Assembly (NCBI GenBank): GCA_002923195.1
Contig: BDTH01000035.1
Location: forward strand, 1,146 to 65,145
Source of the DNA: a bacterium BMS3Abin15
Lineage (GTDB): Bacteria; Patescibacteriota; Minisyncoccia; Moranbacterales; 2-12-FULL-40-10
DNA: 64,000 nt
Direction: 5' to 3'
Of this stretch, positions 3,037 through 59,767 are shown piece by piece (position 1 is the first letter of the stretch; the number at the start of each line of letters is the position of its first letter). Both the position numbers and the translations under genes were made by a program. The notes beneath the pieces are model-generated. The model had not been told where the DNA came from. It did not search any database and worked only from the letters and a program-made list of their open reading frames with translations.

Positions 3037-3528
3037 ATGGCCAAAGAAAAAAAATCATTTTTTGAGAAACTGACCGGAGCAAAGAAAATAGAGGACGAGG
3101 GCGAATCAATGCCTGTTTATTCTGACGATGAAGAAGCAGAAATGACAATGAACACCAGCACCACTCCTTCAACAGAAGAAAACTGGCCTAGTGACGCTGA
3201 AGGACAGCTTACTATTGATGTCTATCAAACTGAAAATGATGTGGTAATTAAATCAACTATTGCTGGCGTGAAGCCGGAAGATTTAGACGTCGCCATAAAC
3301 AACGATATGATAACAATAAAGGGAGAAAGGAAGAATGAAGAGGTAGTTGAAAATGAAAATTATTATTATCAGGAATGTTACTGGGGTTCATTCTCTAGAT
3401 CAGTAGTTTTGCCAGTAGACGTAATTGCCGACAAGGCTGAGGCATCTTTAAAAAACGGGATTTTAACAATTCGGCTTCCCAAAGCTGATACCACTAAAGC
3501 TAAGAAGATTCAGGTTAGAGGATTTTAG
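3037..3528 (+). CDS. small heat shock protein, Hsp20/alpha-crystallin family
   Basis: Alpha-crystallin domain pattern (LTIDVYQTENDVVIKSTIAGV...GILTIRLPK). Followed by a hairpin terminator. Confidence 0.85.
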   Translation: MAKEKKSFFEKLTGAKKIEDEGESMPVYSDDEEAEMTMNTSTTPSTEENWPSDAEGQLTIDVYQTENDVVIKSTIAGVKPEDLDVAINNDMITIKGERKNEEVVENENYYYQECYWGSFSRSVVLPVDVIADKAEASLKNGILTIRLPKADTTKAKKIQVRGF

Positions 3529-23207: not shown

Positions 23208-24428
23208 CTAAATCTTAAATTCTATGACATCGCCATCAGCGACTATATATTCTTTCCCCTCTGTTCTCATCCAACCTAACTCCTTGGCCTTTGCCCAAGA
23301 GCCTGCTTCTAATAATTTTTCCCAGTTAATTATATCGGCTCGGATGAATTTTTCCTGGAAATCATTATGAATAGCCATTCCTGCTTCAGGTGCAGTAGAA
23401 TCTTTTTTGACTGTCCAAGCCCGCGTTTCGTCCTCGCCTGTGGTAAGAAATGTAATAAGGCTTAATAATTCATATGATTTCAAAATAAGCTTATTAAGCC
23501 CGGTTTCCAAATTCAATTCTTTTTTTTCTTTTTCCGTCATTTCTCCCATCTCTTCTTCAATTTTAATGTCTAGTTTTACCCCCACACCAAATTTATTTTT
23601 TATAACAATATTATCAGTAGAATAATCCGTATATTTATCTTTAAAATTATCACTTCCGGTAGTATTTTTGGTGTGGGGGTGAATATAACTTTTATTTTCT
23701 AATCCTTTTGGAAGTTTTTCATCAAAATCTGAAATATTGTAGGCATACAAAAATGGCTTCATCGTAAGTAAGGATAATTCATTAACCGCAGCATCAACAA
23801 TTTCATCTTTCATATCAAGCTCTGTTTCATTGGCTAATTTTTCTTCTTCTAATGTTTTTTTAATTTTTTCTGTAATTTCCAGCTTCTTCGCCGCTTCCCC
23901 GCCTGCAACGCTATGCCAGCCCGCAGTAGATACAGCGTTTCTGGCGGGCGTAGCATTGCGGGCAGGTTTGTCATTCCCGCGTGCTTCTTTTTGCAACTTT
24001 TCTATTCTTTTATTTACTGTTTCAAGATCAGCTATTATGAGCTCGGCATTAATAATCTCTATGTCGTTTAAAGGATCTATCTTGTTATGTACGTGGGTAA
24101 TTTTAGAATTCTCAAATACTCTTACCACTTGAATAATAGCATCCACTTCCCGAATGTGAGATAAAAACTTATTTCCCAATCCTTCGCCATCCGCCGCGCC
24201 CTTAACTAGGCCTGCGATATCCACAAATTCAATAACAGTGGGAATTATTTTCTCACTCTTTGACATTTTAGCTAATTTTTCCAAGCGCTCATCCGGAACC
24301 TTCACTACTCCCACATTGGGTTCAATAGTACAGAAGGGATAGTTATTTATATCCACCGGATTATTAGTCAACGCTTTAAATAAAGTAGACTTTCCCACAT
24401 TAGGAAGTCCGACTATTCCAATTTTCAC
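23208..24428 (-). CDS. ychF: ribosome-binding ATPase YchF (Obg-like GTPase family) carrying an in-frame GC-rich insertion
   Basis: [21 protein letters not shown] (GTG start), [10 protein letters not shown]-terminal TGS-like RAWTV...GDVIEFKI. 406 aa. Confidence 0.9.
23897..23966. repeat. nested GC-rich palindromic element inside the ychF coding sequence
   Basis: cccgcctgcaacgct...gcgtagcattgcgggcagg arms nearly identical to the 43091 element, with a second GC palindrome (ccagcccgc...ctggcgggc) in its loop. Translates in frame as [23 protein letters not shown]. Confidence 0.7.
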
Positions 24429-24596
24429 CCCGTTAGAAATTTTATAAGCCTATTGCTAAAAAACAACAACACTTAAAAAATATATAATTAATTAATTATA
24501 ACCCAGTTAGAATGTTAAAATTTCTAACGGGGTTCATGACATCTATTCACAAATAGTAAGTAAATGAATACTACACTAATGCAACAACATAATCAA

Positions 24597-27130: not shown

Positions 27131-27320
27131 TTGACACCATTCTTATAATTGTATTAATTTACTAAGAACTGTTTGCCCCGTTAGAAAATTGTGTGAGGCA
27201 TGAAACTTATGGCCACAAGAACTGTTTAAGCTTTCAACTAAACATAGTAAATCGTATAACATATTTCTAACGGGGTTAATCTGTTCTTTTTTAATTTTAA
27301 ATTCACAGGGAGGTATAATT

Positions 27321-37034: not shown

Positions 37035-37301
37035 TATATTTAGAATATCTAAGGTTTATTATTAGCTCAATTTACCAGGTTTCATTCTATCAAAACAACG
37101 AGAAGAAGTCAACCCCGCACTAATTTTGCACCAAATACGCTTTTAATCGGTGCTCTAGCACCAGTGCAAATTTAGTGCGGGGTCAAGTCCAATACGTATA
37201 GAGTATATCATATAAGAATAAGGGTATCAATCACTGACGCTATTGCTCATTTGAATATTTTGTGTTACTATATCACTTTCCAATTAAATGTTAAGCTTAT
37301 A

Positions 37302-37754
37302 ATGGTAATGGCCAATTTAGCTGTAAACAAAAGAGCGAATTTCGACTATAAAGTTCTGGACCGATACGAGGCCGGGATTGTTTTATCTGGGCAGGAAGTA
37401 AAATCTATAAGGGCTGGACAGGCTAGCCTGAAAGGAAGTTTTGTGACCCTAAAAGGCAAAGAGCTATACCTTACTAATACTAGTATCCCTCCCTACAAAC
37501 TAGCCACTAAGCTAGAAGGATACAACCCCACCCAATCGCGCAAGCTATTACTTAAAAAATCAGAAATCAAGTCGCTAATAGGGAAAATGAAAGTTCAGGG
37601 CTTGACACTAGTGCCCATTCGCTTGTATACTAAAAAGCGACTTGTTAAACTAGAATTTTCCGTAGCTCGAGGCAAAAAAGAGTTTGACAAAAGGCAGGAT
37701 ATCGCTAAAAAGGAAGCTAAAAGGAAAGTAGAAAGAAGGCTGAGGACAAATTAA
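37302..37754 (+). CDS. smpB: SsrA-binding protein SmpB
   Basis: NKRANFDYKVLDRYEAGIVLSGQEVKSIR... Start set at an internal ATG (37302 or 37308). Confidence 0.9.
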   Translation: MVMANLAVNKRANFDYKVLDRYEAGIVLSGQEVKSIRAGQASLKGSFVTLKGKELYLTNTSIPPYKLATKLEGYNPTQSRKLLLKKSEIKSLIGKMKVQGLTLVPIRLYTKKRLVKLEFSVARGKKEFDKRQDIAKKEAKRKVERRLRTN

Positions 37755-37757
37755 ACT

Positions 37758-38009
37758 ATGTATTACGTATATGTATTAAAAAGTTTAAAAGATAAGCAGA
37801 TTTACGTTGGTCATTGCAATAATTTAAAGGGTAGAATAAGGGATCATAATCTGGGACTTGTAAAATCTACAAAACCGAGAAGGCCATTAAAGTTGATATA
37901 TTATGAAGCATGTAATTTATTAGAAGATGCCGCAAAGAGAGAAAAGGCATTAAAATCAGGATTTGGAAGAGCATACCTAAAAAGAAGACTGAGCGACTTA
38001 AAAAAATAG
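37758..38009 (+). CDS. stand-alone GIY-YIG nuclease-domain protein, 83 aa
   Basis: YYVYVLKS...IYVGHCNNLKGRIRDHN...REKALK pattern. Wedged between smpB and ssrA. Confidence 0.8.
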   Translation: MYYVYVLKSLKDKQIYVGHCNNLKGRIRDHNLGLVKSTKPRRPLKLIYYEACNLLEDAAKREKALKSGFGRAYLKRRLSDLKK

Positions 38010-38049
38010 ACATTCACTTTCCTTAACGATTCAGCAATGCGAAAGCGGG

Positions 38050-38085
38050 CCCGCCCGCATCGCTACGCGAAGCGTTGCGGGCGGG
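38050..38085. repeat. GC-rich nested hairpin abutting the tmRNA 5' end
   Basis: Perfect 10-bp stem cccgcccgca/tgcgggcggg with an inner acgc-gaa-gcgt hairpin. The 3' arm overlaps the first nt of ssrA. Confidence 0.65.
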
Positions 38086-38521
38086 GGATGCCTAGCTTCG
38101 ACAGGTTGCTCATTTAAAATAAGCAGGTCGACCATTATAGTTGTGTCGTAAAACCATCTATAAAAGTAGATAACTGCAAACATTATCTCAAAGGTAAAAG
38201 CTACATTTGCGCAAGCATTTGCACCCGCCTGCATCGCTGTTGCGTAAGCACTGCGGGCACGGCCAGCTTTTGCTTCTGCTGTTGCTTAATTGCAAACAGC
38301 CATCGAACTGCTAACTCCTAATAGGCAGATCTCGGTGTCAATCATTAGGATAGTTTAAGACATTTTCTTTGGGTGTTTTAAACGAAAGTTTGCCAAAGAC
38401 GAGTAGTAAAAGTTTTTGTTTGTTTTTCATTTTGCCGCTTGTAAAAAATAAATAAACTAAGCTTGTAGATTATTTCATCTGAACAATTTTGGACGCGAGT
38501 GCAATTCTCGCCATCTCCACC
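38084..38521 (+). ncRNA. ssrA: tmRNA (SsrA)
   Basis: 5' GGGGAUGCCUAGCUUCGACAGG pairs with 3' CAUCUCC-ACC (G3:U pair). T-arm GGACGCGAGUGCAAUUCUCGCC. Resume context auaacuGCAAAC. Tag ORF 38176-38247 reads ANIISKVKATFAQAFAPACIAVA*. Adjacent to smpB. Confidence 0.9.
38224..38262. repeat. 39-nt GC-rich palindromic element inside the tmRNA tag reading frame
   Basis: About 29/39 identical (hand alignment) to the 39-nt element in the SpoU gene (43091-43129). Contains the functional tag stop codon. Confidence 0.6.
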
Positions 38522-38570
38522 CTATAAACTCCGACTTTGTATCGGGGTGTGTAATAATTAAACCAAATAT

Positions 38571-39679: not shown

Positions 39680-39820
39680 ATTCATTGTCTTGTCATTCTG
39701 GACTCCGATCCGGAATCTAGATCCTGAATTAAATTCAGGATGACACAACAAAAAATCGCCATACCGGCGGTTTTTTGTTTTCAACTTCAACGGCTCACCC
39801 CCCTGGGCCGTTAGAAATTT

Positions 39821-40974: not shown

Positions 40975-41361
40975 ATAATTTTAATTAAGTATTTTAATAA
41001 GTAGAAAGTTTATTTTTTTCCGCCTCGGCTAGCCTTGGGCGAGACGGGCCAATCCCGCCTATAGATAGATTTTAACATGACCAGTTTTCAATTAAAACTC
41101 AAGAAATGGGACTTTTCTCCATTCTACGCCCAAATCCTGACTAAATCAACCAGTCCTTCGTTAAAACTACGGAATTATAAATAAAAAAACAACGGCTCAC
41201 CCCCCTTGGGCCGTTGAGATTCTGAATTTAATCCAGAATGACATTTTTGGAAAATGGAGAGATGCTCCCTCCCCTCCTTTAGTTCCTCCCCTCTGGCAGG
41301 GGAGGAAGAAGATAATAAAAAATCCCGTGATTGCTGTGCTTACTCGCAATCACTACCCCTT

Positions 41362-45586: not shown

Positions 45587-45600
45587 TTTATTTTTGTACA

Positions 45601-45714
45601 CCCCCACACCAATTTTGGTAAAGGGTTTTATAACACCAATAGCTAGAGCTAATAGACAGATTTGCTTTATAATTCCTCATTGTCTCAAAATTTATTTTGA
45701 AATTGGTGTGGGGG
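45601..45714. mobile_element. ORF-less 114-bp unit bounded by perfect 14-bp inverted repeats CCCCCACACCAATT / AATTGGTGTGGGGG (MITE-like)
   Basis: IRs at 45601-45614 and 45701-45714. The same IR pair brackets the GIY-YIG gene at 59329-59625. The right IR supplies the last 8 codons (FTPTPISK*) of the 45692..46711 ORF. Confidence 0.55.
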
Positions 45715-46711
45715 TAAAGATTTCCCTAGCCTCATCCCAAACATCTGGGTGGTCTTTTTGTGTTTTCAGCCAATACCACCACTCCACTCCCCAGAGATAG
45801 GCTTTATTAAACCCGGTCTTCTTGGCGAATTCTATATTCTTTTTAAGCCTCTCGGCATCCATCGCTTTTAGCTGTTTTTCCAAGGGCGCTCCCGCAACCC
45901 ATTCATCCAGCCATGGCTCCCCTTGCAATTCCGCAATGATAACATCATTTTGATTAGCAAATTTTTTGATTAGCCAGTATTTAAACTTGAAAAAATTAGG
46001 TCCGATGGGATATTTAAAATGCCCGACTTTCTCGCTGTAAACATCAAAATACATAGTAGTCCCGAAGATATCGGCCCGCTTGGCCGCTTGAATCCATAAG
46101 CTAAGCTCACCGCTGTCAGTCACTATTATAGGGCGAGTATTATCAATGTTCTTAATTATCGCTATTTCTTGGTCTAATAATTCTGCGTCTATAAGGGGGC
46201 AAACACCGAACTTTAAAAATGGTTCGTTTTCAGCCTGCCAGTGGGAAATCGCCGGATTTTCCTTGTAACGATTGACTGTTATGGAAACCATTTTCTTTAA
46301 AGCTTCCTCTCTTTTTAAATCATTGTTTTTTGCCCATTCCGGTATGTGGCACTCCGGCCAGCGGGGAACTTTTTGCCCCACCACTAATACAATTTTCACA
46401 TTTCTTTTTTCAGCCTCTTCTATCTGCCAATCCACATCGGAAAAATCGTATATTCCTTCCTCTTTTTCAACCAGGTCCCAATAAACCGGAAGGCGGATGT
46501 CAGAAACTTTCAAATCATCAAGGATGGCCAAATAAGTTTCTTTCCAATCAAGCCCTAATGACTGGGCGTGGCGATGGGAAAAAGTGACACCCAGGCTAAA
46601 ATCTTTTTGGGGTATTTTTACCGGAAAATTAAAATAGATAAAAGCGATAATAATTATTGCAACTATTACGGCCAGCATGATAAGTGAAATTTTGATAAAT
46701 TTCTTAAACAT
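45692..46711 (-). CDS. TIM-barrel glycoside hydrolase-like protein (GH5/GH42-like), membrane anchored
   Basis: N-terminal TM helix. VYWDLVEKEEGIYDFSDVDWQIEEA...WQAENEP pattern typical of clan GH-A. Confidence 0.55.
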   Translation of the reverse strand: MFKKFIKISLIMLAVIVAIIIIAFIYFNFPVKIPQKDFSLGVTFSHRHAQSLGLDWKETYLAILDDLKVSDIRLPVYWDLVEKEEGIYDFSDVDWQIEEAEKRNVKIVLVVGQKVPRWPECHIPEWAKNNDLKREEALKKMVSITVNRYKENPAISHWQAENEPFLKFGVCPLIDAELLDQEIAIIKNIDNTRPIIVTDSGELSLWIQAAKRADIFGTTMYFDVYSEKVGHFKYPIGPNFFKFKYWLIKKFANQNDVIIAELQGEPWLDEWVAGAPLEKQLKAMDAERLKKNIEFAKKTGFNKAYLWGVEWWYWLKTQKDHPDVWDEAREIFTPTPISK

Positions 46712-55997: not shown

Positions 55998-56573
55998 CTA
56001 AAAATTACATTCTCCGCATTCGCCTAACTCGCACACTGTAAATGTAGGCCTGTCTCTTTCACCTATACCAAACTTGCTAACTCCTTCACCCTCCTGGCAG
56101 ATAACAGTATGGGATGCTGACTCGGAAACATCAGATCCTGACGGGGAATTGTGATTGTCATCGTTATTGCTTCCAGTTCCATTATTACTACCGTTGCCAT
56201 CACTGTCTTCTTCAGATTCTTCCCCCTCAAAATAGAAAGTATTTTTATCTCTAGCATATCCATTTTCCAAAACCTCAAAGGTGCTGGCATCGACACCACT
56301 CATTGGATTGCCTCGATAATAAACTATTCCGGTTTCTTTGTTTATTGCATAGCCATTCCCTAAATTTTCAAAGTCGCTATTGATAACAATATTGGATCCA
56401 AAATCGTCCCATTCGTCTATATCTTTCCCGATTTTTTCCTGAAGCTTGATATTATTTGGAATACTTCTGGATAAATCTTCGATCTTGCTGCTATAGTAAG
56501 ATTGGATAATAAGGATAGCCACTATAGCAGCCAGAACAGCAATTGATATTATAGCTAAAGCTTTTTTATTCAT
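55998..56573 (-). CDS. membrane-anchored DKNYY-repeat-like protein with a Cys-rich tail
   Basis: VDASTFEVLENGYARDKNTFYFEG resembles DKNYY repeats. N-terminal TM helix. C-terminal CxxGECGEC. Confidence 0.5.
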   Translation of the reverse strand: MNKKALAIISIAVLAAIVAILIIQSYYSSKIEDLSRSIPNNIKLQEKIGKDIDEWDDFGSNIVINSDFENLGNGYAINKETGIVYYRGNPMSGVDASTFEVLENGYARDKNTFYFEGEESEEDSDGNGSNNGTGSNNDDNHNSPSGSDVSESASHTVICQEGEGVSKFGIGERDRPTFTVCELGECGECNF

Positions 56574-56806
56574 CCCGTTAGATATAAGTGAGTTATTTAA
56601 TCCTGCCAGACATTAACAGAATATCTAACGGGATTCATAATCCAATTCTACCCCATTAAAATATTTTGGTAAACCCGCACACCAAATTTTTGTGTGCGGG
56701 CAAAGATTTAACCCCAGAACCACAGCTCCGCTGACTACGAGGCAGGCGGGGCAAGCCATAAAAAAATAATCCCGCCAAAGCAATGGATTATATAGACATA
56801 AATAAG

Positions 56807-59325: not shown

Positions 59326-59328
59326 ACA

Positions 59329-59625
59329 CCCCCACACCAATTATGTTTGGGAAGAGTTATTCCAAACTTTCTTGGATGCGTTTCATTAATTGGGCAAATG
59401 CCCTACTTCTTAATTTTAAATTATGTTCTCTTTTACGAGCATCTTTTTCTGATTTATACGACTCGTAATATACTAAATTAAATGGTTTTCTTAGTTTGGT
59501 AGAGTAAATTTTTCCAGAATTATGCATTTCCAAGCGTTTCCTAAGATTATTAGTAGATCCTATGTACATTTTGCTATCTTTTTTACTTTTAAGAATATAC
59601 AAATAAAACATGATTGGTGTGGGGG
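59329..59625. mobile_element. GIY-YIG gene cassette bounded by 13-14 bp perfect inverted repeats
   Basis: CCCCCACACCAATT at 59329-59342 and ATTGGTGTGGGGG at 59613-59625 enclose only the 84-aa GIY-YIG ORF. The same IR pair occurs at 45601/45701. Confidence 0.55.
59357..59611 (-). CDS. stand-alone GIY-YIG nuclease-domain protein, 84 aa
   Basis: FYLYILKS...MYIGSTNNLRKRLEMHN...REHNLK. Confidence 0.8.
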   Translation of the reverse strand: MFYLYILKSKKDSKMYIGSTNNLRKRLEMHNSGKIYSTKLRKPFNLVYYESYKSEKDARKREHNLKLRSRAFAQLMKRIQESLE

Positions 59626-59767
59626 TAAAAAAAACTGCTGCTATGCAACAGAATCAAGTTACTTGTAGAATTATAGGCAATAAAGCAGTAAGTGTCAATT
59701 GATTATTGGATTATATCGCTCCACTTTGTGGCTATCTGATTTTGGAGGAGAATCTGTTTGATAATCA

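Follow-up and report, generated by a model that had tools for sequence, protein, structure and literature searches.

Ssn enzymes are single-domain GIY-YIG nucleases of ~94 aa that act on single-stranded DNA only, with cleavage close to hairpin repeats (Chenal et al., Nat Commun 2025, PMC11893778). The repeats, named NTS or SRM, flank their own ssn genes, occur in hundreds of copies per genome and have the published pattern HGTCWYN(0-2)YYVSBRHN(0-5)WNVSBRGN(0-2)RNCYNB (PMC11893778). The authors remarked on the IS-like layout NTS-ssnA-NTS and raised the idea that such units are or were mobile (PMC11893778). An earlier note on the DNA studied here had known of no described cassette in which a small GIY-YIG gene stands between inverted repeats. 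In general terms, that statement no longer holds, as the Ssn/NTS publication of 2025 described small GIY-YIG genes with hairpin repeats at their flanks, though not in the architecture or the lineage described below.

Other repeat families provide further points of comparison. REP/BIME sequences are short dispersed palindromes, with the gene of the RAYT transposase (IS200/IS605-like, Y1) flanked by inverted repeat copies, and recognition in the REP/RAYT system is thought to act on single-stranded hairpins. In IS/MITE pairs such as Correia elements, short TIR-bounded units lie at gene boundaries and are able to donate expression signals. Rickettsia palindromic elements (RPEs; Ogata et al. 2000) are reportedly palindromes of ~100 nt, which lie in frame in essential protein genes and are tolerated there.

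In the present study, we analyzed a stretch of 64,000 nucleotides (hereafter, the window), which had a G+C content of 37% and was matched by two TPA assemblies at 99.96%. The features are collected in Table 1. At 59328-59626, an 84-aa GIY-YIG ORF was enclosed by ACCCCCACACCAAT (59328-59341) and its complement ATTGGTGTGGGGGT (59613-59626). The earlier note had described this pair as CCCCCACACCAATT at 59329-59342 with its complement at 59613-59625, and every coordinate was correct. As it had also reported, 1 nt separates one arm from the start of the ORF and 14 nt separate the other arm from its end, and the unit lies 3 nt from the typA start codon. The length of the arms required revision; the inverted repeat was present but exceeded the 14-mer, reaching 21 nt at 95% in the 297-bp unit and taking in ATGTTT/AAACAT. 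The promoter upstream would transcribe the cassette and typA together. About 20 nt beyond this promoter, a terminator-like hairpin with a T8 run abuts the cassette (59635-59698, minus strand). The order of promoter before terminator upstream of typA is odd, and the arrangement could be a leader or attenuator of typA. At gathering thresholds, Rfam found only the tmRNA and four tRNAs in the window; thus the arms correspond to no known RNA family.

Table 1. Coordinates of the cassette, the related hairpin units and neighbouring features in the window
Feature	Position	Strand	Remarks
ORF-less in-frame unit in ychF, 105 nt, 35 codons, IHPHTK...KFGVG	23580..23684		orthologue alignment; fold z=-3.5
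Related hairpin unit: ACCCCGCACTAATTTTGCAC, 32 nt, complement; GTCAA just before	37112..37183		fold z=-6.9
Divergent GIY-YIG paralogue, 43% identity, between smpB and ssrA	37758..38009	+	not enclosed by these arms
ORF-less unit, 16-nt perfect arms, 84-nt interior unrelated to the others	45600..45715		gives the upstream glycoside-hydrolase-like ORF its last codons and stop; ssDNA fold z=-4.4
Minimal hairpin of the same superfamily: CCCGCACAC, 9-nt loop, GTGTGCGGG	56674..56700		wider motif search; fold z=-4.4
typA-side arm ACCCCCACACCAATTATGTTT	59328..59348		ends 2-3 nt from the typA ATG (59325)
84-aa single-domain GIY-YIG nuclease ORF	59357..59611	-	Pfam PF01541, E=1.5e-17
obg-side arm AAACATGATTGGTGTGGGGGT	59606..59626		overlaps the ORF start codon
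Consensus sigma-70-type promoter, TTGACA-17-TATAAT	59670..59698	-	12/12 matches; reads towards the cassette and typA

The Pfam match spanned residues 1-71 of the 84-aa protein, and the predicted fold was a confident GIY-YIG (pLDDT 92.9). Among 25 homologues, Y3, Y5, Y16, G18, R26, H30, N31 and E62 were invariant. Domain searches matched only GIY-YIG-type families and no transposase class (DDE, HUH, serine or tyrosine). According to Foldseek against the PDB, the nearest solved folds were UPF0213 and Slx1, and no solved Ssn structure was among the matches; motifs such as HNxGK...RxPFxL likewise seem to resemble UPF0213/Slx1-type proteins more closely. I-TevI and the T4 Seg enzymes share the GIY-YIG catalytic domain and would share a selfish spread by breaks and repair, but the 84-aa protein carries no DNA-binding extension (TIGR01453, 23 bits against a cut-off of 56), and the cassette is not tied to one allelic target, its copies lying at many unrelated loci. 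A tblastn search of plasmids gave a single, irrelevant match.

To compare the protein with Ssn, we considered the criterion for the Ssn clade, which is cd10448 together with a blastp match to N. meningitidis SsnA at E<1e-10 and >=75% coverage, and used the NTS-flanked Ssn P0281 as a proxy. A consensus sequence served only as bait; it returned real proteins, which carried canonical CGTCATYCCCGCGAAGGCGGGRAYCCAG hairpins on both sides and were therefore taken as genuine Ssn. The window protein showed 31% identity to P0281 over 70 aa (one-to-one E=6e-9). A profile-profile comparison (hhalign) of the cassette family with Ssn gave a probability of 97.8%, a value that any two GIY-YIG families might reach. 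The published SRM pattern was absent from the window (0 matches) and occurred 3 times in 430 kb of homologous loci, while the same script found it in 2/2 flanks at genuine Ssn. On these results, we interpret the nuclease of the cassette as Ssn-like but paired with another cognate hairpin, and the layout as distinct in that the gene occupies the loop.

Of the described systems, Ssn/NTS is the closest to the cassette. In both systems the protein is a single GIY-YIG domain (<100 aa in the cassette) with intact catalytic residues, the gene has a hairpin-forming repeat on both sides that is also dispersed, and repeat variants pair with protein variants. However, the flanks of the cassette gene are two halves of one long-range hairpin, whereas ssn genes lie between two complete 28-nt hairpins. 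The cassette core CCCCCACACC is unrelated to CGTCATTCCCGCG of Ssn, and the proteins differ to the extent given above. The CPR (candidate phyla radiation) lineage, the copies at tRNA ends and the in-frame insertions described below are unmentioned in PMC11893778. In one MAG, a canonical Neisseria-type NTS/SRM hairpin (TGTCATTCCCGCGCAGGCGGGAATCCAG, L008 773-800) was observed together with a CCCCCACACC-type cassette, and the two systems may coexist there.

The family is widespread. At 50% clustering and E up to 0.001, the 84-aa protein had 6,898 representatives, and >800 close relatives (70-87% identity) came from CPR lineages and from bins labelled Omnitrophica and Cloacimonetes. Some relatives reach 230-480 aa, with the GIY-YIG domain N-terminal and a C-terminal extension (P0383, P0399, P0417 and others). 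We sampled 80 homologue loci from one-genome-per-species contigs, mostly of CPR bacteria. In ~60 of the 80, the ORF was bracketed by inverted arms with a conserved core; the outer core, (A)CCCCCACACC / GGTGTGGGGG(T), was conserved across phyla, and the inner 5-12 arm nucleotides varied between genomes yet stayed complementary. The arms often overlapped the ATG and the stop codon of the bracketed ORF. A paralogue of 82% identity (P0019), located on a different contig of this organism, was bracketed by ATCCCCACACCAATTATGTTT/AAACATAATTGGTGTGGGGAT, a compensated variant (ATCCCC...GGGGAT). In one subclade the gene was unenclosed, and one to three hairpin units without an ORF came after it; their number differed between loci with the same neighbouring gene.

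Beside nuclease genes we also observed perfect palindromes of 27-31 nt with the same core and 4-nt loops (e.g., ACCCCCACACCAACCCGGTTGGTGTGGGGGT; L019 ~2330-2366, L053 2697-2726 and 3019-3043, L073 ~3262-3290), which are REP-like minimal forms. The cassette resembles the REP/RAYT system in its dispersed short palindromes and in the enzyme gene between inverted repeat copies, but its enzyme is a hydrolytic GIY-YIG nuclease and not an HUH tyrosine (Y1) transposase, and its loops can be long and variable. At cassette copies the G-run of the arm lay 3-8 nt before downstream start codons, a likeness to Correia elements; the window copies differ from Correia and other IS/MITE pairs, as they lack a target duplication of fixed length, a common interior and an enzyme of a transposase class. 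At L167 3018-4338, which belongs to a different contig of this organism, a glycosyltransferase gene was found between two GIY-YIG genes, one of them hairpin-bracketed and the other (41% identity) not, and the right-arm G-run stood 5 nt before the glycosyltransferase ATG.

To measure covariation without circularity, each side was anchored independently on the 6-nt core and the next 12 inner bases were compared. The inner 12 bases were complementary at 9.67/12 positions within a locus, as against 5.56/12 between loci, and 40 distinct inner 12-mers occurred among 49 loci. Two-sided changes were found in 181 cells, compared with 77 in shuffles (0/500 reached 181) and 36-62 with the partner slid. 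One-sided changes and G-T pairs were few, which fits complementarity at the DNA level.

The covariation could also be expected if the arms acted in RNA, as a long-range 5'-3' stem that encloses the ORF, hides its start codon (and, in the window, the typA ribosome-binding region as well) and controls a potentially toxic nuclease. Consistent with this, the arms abut or overlap start and stop codons, the consensus promoter lies upstream so that both arms would be transcribed here, and the predicted RNA closes with a 21-bp stem (z=-3.7). However, the same arms also delimit ORF-less units within a coding sequence and in intergenic positions, G-U intermediates are very few, and some genes of the family have no enclosing arms. 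In addition, a TAnAAT box was found inside the unit at 14/26 loci with >=18 nt between left arm and ATG and at 0/36 others; in about half of this subclass, such a -10-like box between left arm and ATG would exclude the left arm from the mRNA. The scan detected no full sigma-70 promoter inside these long-spacer units, only the -10-like box being enriched. We consider this explanation highly improbable, and from the ORF-less units in coding DNA, the internal -10-like box and the scarcity of G-U pairs, a function at the RNA level alone is unlikely. Since the upstream promoter would transcribe both arms with typA and a 21-bp stem is predicted, the arms may still have a local effect on typA translation in the window.

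The repeat was concentrated around the nuclease genes. Within 150 nt of these genes, the motif occurred at 2.26 per kb, compared with 0.096 per kb elsewhere in the same loci, where 37 matches were nevertheless found against ~2 expected, including 7 ORF-less convergent pairs. In a control of 434 kb of CPR typA loci, the density was 0.009 per kb; the motif was thus ~250-fold denser at nuclease genes. Variants of the motif (CCCGCACAC, CACCCACAC) tracked protein subclades.

These observations bear on the possibility that the repeats are host REP-like elements spread in some other way, and that the GIY-YIG gene is a homing-type parasite or passenger in their loops, with the repeat not its substrate. 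In favour of this possibility, what the loops contain is unrelated and ranges from 4 to 257 nt, the window has at least three further hairpin families without an ORF, and in P0139 the ychF site is taken by another hairpin family. The core motif, however, is essentially confined to the neighbourhood of the nuclease gene family and to genomes that have it, core and protein are conserved together across phyla, and the motif variants follow the protein subclades. We regard this possibility as improbable.

The other hairpin families were observed as follows. A different palindromic family (CCCGCC[CT]GCAACGCTA...) was found twice in the window. Its copy at 23890-23965 is a second in-frame insertion in ychF (PARNAT...HSVAGGEA), present in a shorter form in P0122 and P0127. 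The copy at 38048-38086 is a hairpin directly downstream of the second GIY-YIG gene, abutting the tmRNA 5' end. This second gene, as the earlier note had stated, lacks the arms of the cassette; it begins 4 nt past the smpB stop codon, and smpB, the GIY-YIG gene and ssrA are tightly packed at 37251-38522 (tmRNA 38084-38522, Rfam 125 bits). The CCCGCC[CT]GCAACGCTA repeat may be the cognate repeat of this paralogue. A third family, with arms (A)CCCCGTTAGAAA / TTTCTAACGGGG(T) and unrelated loops of 35-71 nt, occurs at 24427-24533, 27176-27275 and 56566-56640, and the YchF of P0139 appears to carry it (FNGV = TTTAACGGGGT) where the window has the CCCCCACACC unit. Two near-identical segments (CAACGGCTCACCCCCCTKGGGCCGTT...) at 39721-39803 and 41200-41239, ~1.4 kb apart, adjoin a 21-nt inverted repeat pair. 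Because hairpin families of the same genome such as CCCCGTTAGAAA and CCCGCCYGCAACGC have no assigned enzyme, a host-driven process may be common to all of them.

We then examined the further copies of the CCCCCACACC repeat in the window. With up to 2 mismatches, the 13-mer had 8 matches against 0.77 expected, and 0/100 shuffles reached 8, which excluded chance as their source. The earlier note had already recognized a second pair with the same arms around an ORF-less interior (45600-45715), and rightly took its right arm as the coding end of a glycoside-hydrolase-like gene; this arm encodes the last codons TPTPISK* of the ORF at 45692-46711. A third pair, at 23575-23683 inside ychF, was new and had 17-nt arms with one mismatch. 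The three larger units shared only 13-18-nt arms and had unrelated interiors; thus the 'twin' at 45600-45715 did not arise from the gene-bearing unit by deletion. In L042 and L074, GIY-YIG genes are bracketed by CCCGCACACTAATTTTGC arms, which the unit at 37112-37183 resembled. As single-stranded DNA, the window units folded far better than shuffles (z -3.5 to -6.9).

The ychF unit provided an insertion polymorphism. The YchF of the window has 406 aa, compared with 348-350 in most relatives. In the alignment, the 35-aa block was present in the window YchF, P0122 (87% identity) and P0123 (84%), and missing from P0125, P0126, P0127, P0128 and P0181; at least five orthologues thus lack it and three lineages carry it. 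In the nucleotide sequence, the empty site is CCG CAT|GTT AAA and the filled site CAC|ATT CAC CCC CAC ACC ... TTT GGT GTG GGG|GTA AAG, indicating a 105-nt insertion without duplication. Among the three carriers, the arms were conserved and the interior had diverged. The site of this first insertion is the one occupied by a different hairpin family in P0139. An intein or intron was ruled out for this insert by its length of 35 aa, by the lack of such motifs and by the palindromic DNA. The insertion resembles RPEs in being palindromic and in frame, although RPEs are not known to carry an internal nuclease gene. For the gene-bearing unit, we compared 75 typA relatives, and none had the cassette gene or the motif upstream of typA; hence the window cassette is lineage-specific. 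These relatives, at 65-80% identity and without synteny with obg, document that the cassette is absent but do not provide a strict empty site.

The junctions gave a mixed picture. No target-site duplication was found at the three window copies or at the ychF empty site. Among the 62 bracketed loci, 16 had direct repeats of >=8 nt at the junctions, compared with 2.6% in mismatched controls, and most of these repeats lay at tRNA 5' or 3' ends. At tRNA-adjacent copies the tRNA end was regenerated, and repeats of 7-12 nt were seen at some of these copies, namely L026 (TGGAGGCGTG), L056 (GGGCCTGTAG), L062/L075 (TGGGTGCCTA) and L025 (CCTCGGCACCAC). These repeats look like target-site duplications, and a hydrolytic nuclease alone does not explain them. 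Some junction repeats came from tandem units spaced 3-4 nt apart. The tRNA-His site had the same junctions and the same repeat TAGGCACCC in five divergent genomes, with the ORF in either direction, which could reflect inversion between the arms or repeated insertion at a specific site.

The earlier note had interpreted the locus as a TIR-bounded transposon with a MITE. What stands is that the same ends occur on gene-bearing and ORF-less units and recur in dozens of genomes; the relation of autonomous element to MITE fails on the unrelated interiors. In its full form, this reading would make the 84-aa GIY-YIG protein the transposase of an autonomous cut-and-paste element, the arms TIRs bound by it and the ORF-less units MITEs. 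The shared terminal inverted repeats, the several copies in the organism, the presence and absence of the ychF copy, the junction repeats at tRNA-adjacent copies and the 70-87% identity of the protein across phyla are all in its favour. On the other hand, the direct repeats vary in length and several are really tandem units, one subfamily does not have its gene within the hairpin units, and minimal hairpins of 27-31 nt occur. The inner arms also vary freely among near-identical proteins, which is unlike a transposase-specific TIR. A classical TIR transposon with MITEs fits poorly, given no duplication in the window, unrelated interiors and a sole protein that is a hydrolytic GIY-YIG domain with no other domain, and we consider it rather doubtful. 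A tRNA-like acceptor mimic (CCCCCAC-A-CCA) was also dropped, as the polarity of the arms was wrong for a 5'-G-rich/3'-CCA minihelix. With regard to an integron attC-like reading, no recombinase gene was present near the cassette.

On balance, we favour the view that the 297-bp unit represents one instance of a widespread cassette, a 'nuclease in a hairpin', in which an Ssn-related single-domain GIY-YIG gene lies in the loop of a palindrome. The two arms of the palindromic repeat would enclose the gene and form the cognate DNA site of the nuclease, read as a hairpin when the DNA is single-stranded, e.g., during replication or DNA uptake. The nuclease would presumably cleave single-stranded DNA at this hairpin. 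The ORF-less units at 23580-23684, 45600-45715 and 56674-56700 would be further copies of the repeat family and not decayed transposons. The cassette is probably selfish or mobile; the family would behave as selfish DNA that inserts between and inside genes and at tRNA ends while regenerating them, and that moves between lineages. The likely route of spread would be through nuclease-made breaks that host functions repair or copy, and not through cut-and-paste by a transposase. A bolder proposal, which we put forward only tentatively, is that the cassette represents a distinct class of mobile element. Here, a nuclease in its own hairpin would be the only element-encoded need, and the single-stranded hairpin would direct both cutting and copying. 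Such an element would home to G-runs such as tRNA ends, which it regenerates, could invert between its arms, would seed ORF-less hairpins, also within essential genes, and would have spread horizontally across CPR and several other phyla.

For the idea that Ssn-type units are mobile, the present study adds comparative evidence, namely the insertion polymorphism in ychF, an essential GTPase gene, the junction repeats at tRNA ends, the flipped orientations at one site and arms that covary strictly by Watson-Crick pairing. The association of nuclease and hairpin is also extended to CPR bacteria, in whose lifestyle competence-dependent DNA uptake is central. The cassette would add a new recognition sequence to the single-strand-specific nucleases that are wanted as tools, and the repeat accounts for unusual peptides inserted in frame (HPHTK...FGVG) and for the stop and start signals that it supplies in annotated CPR genes.
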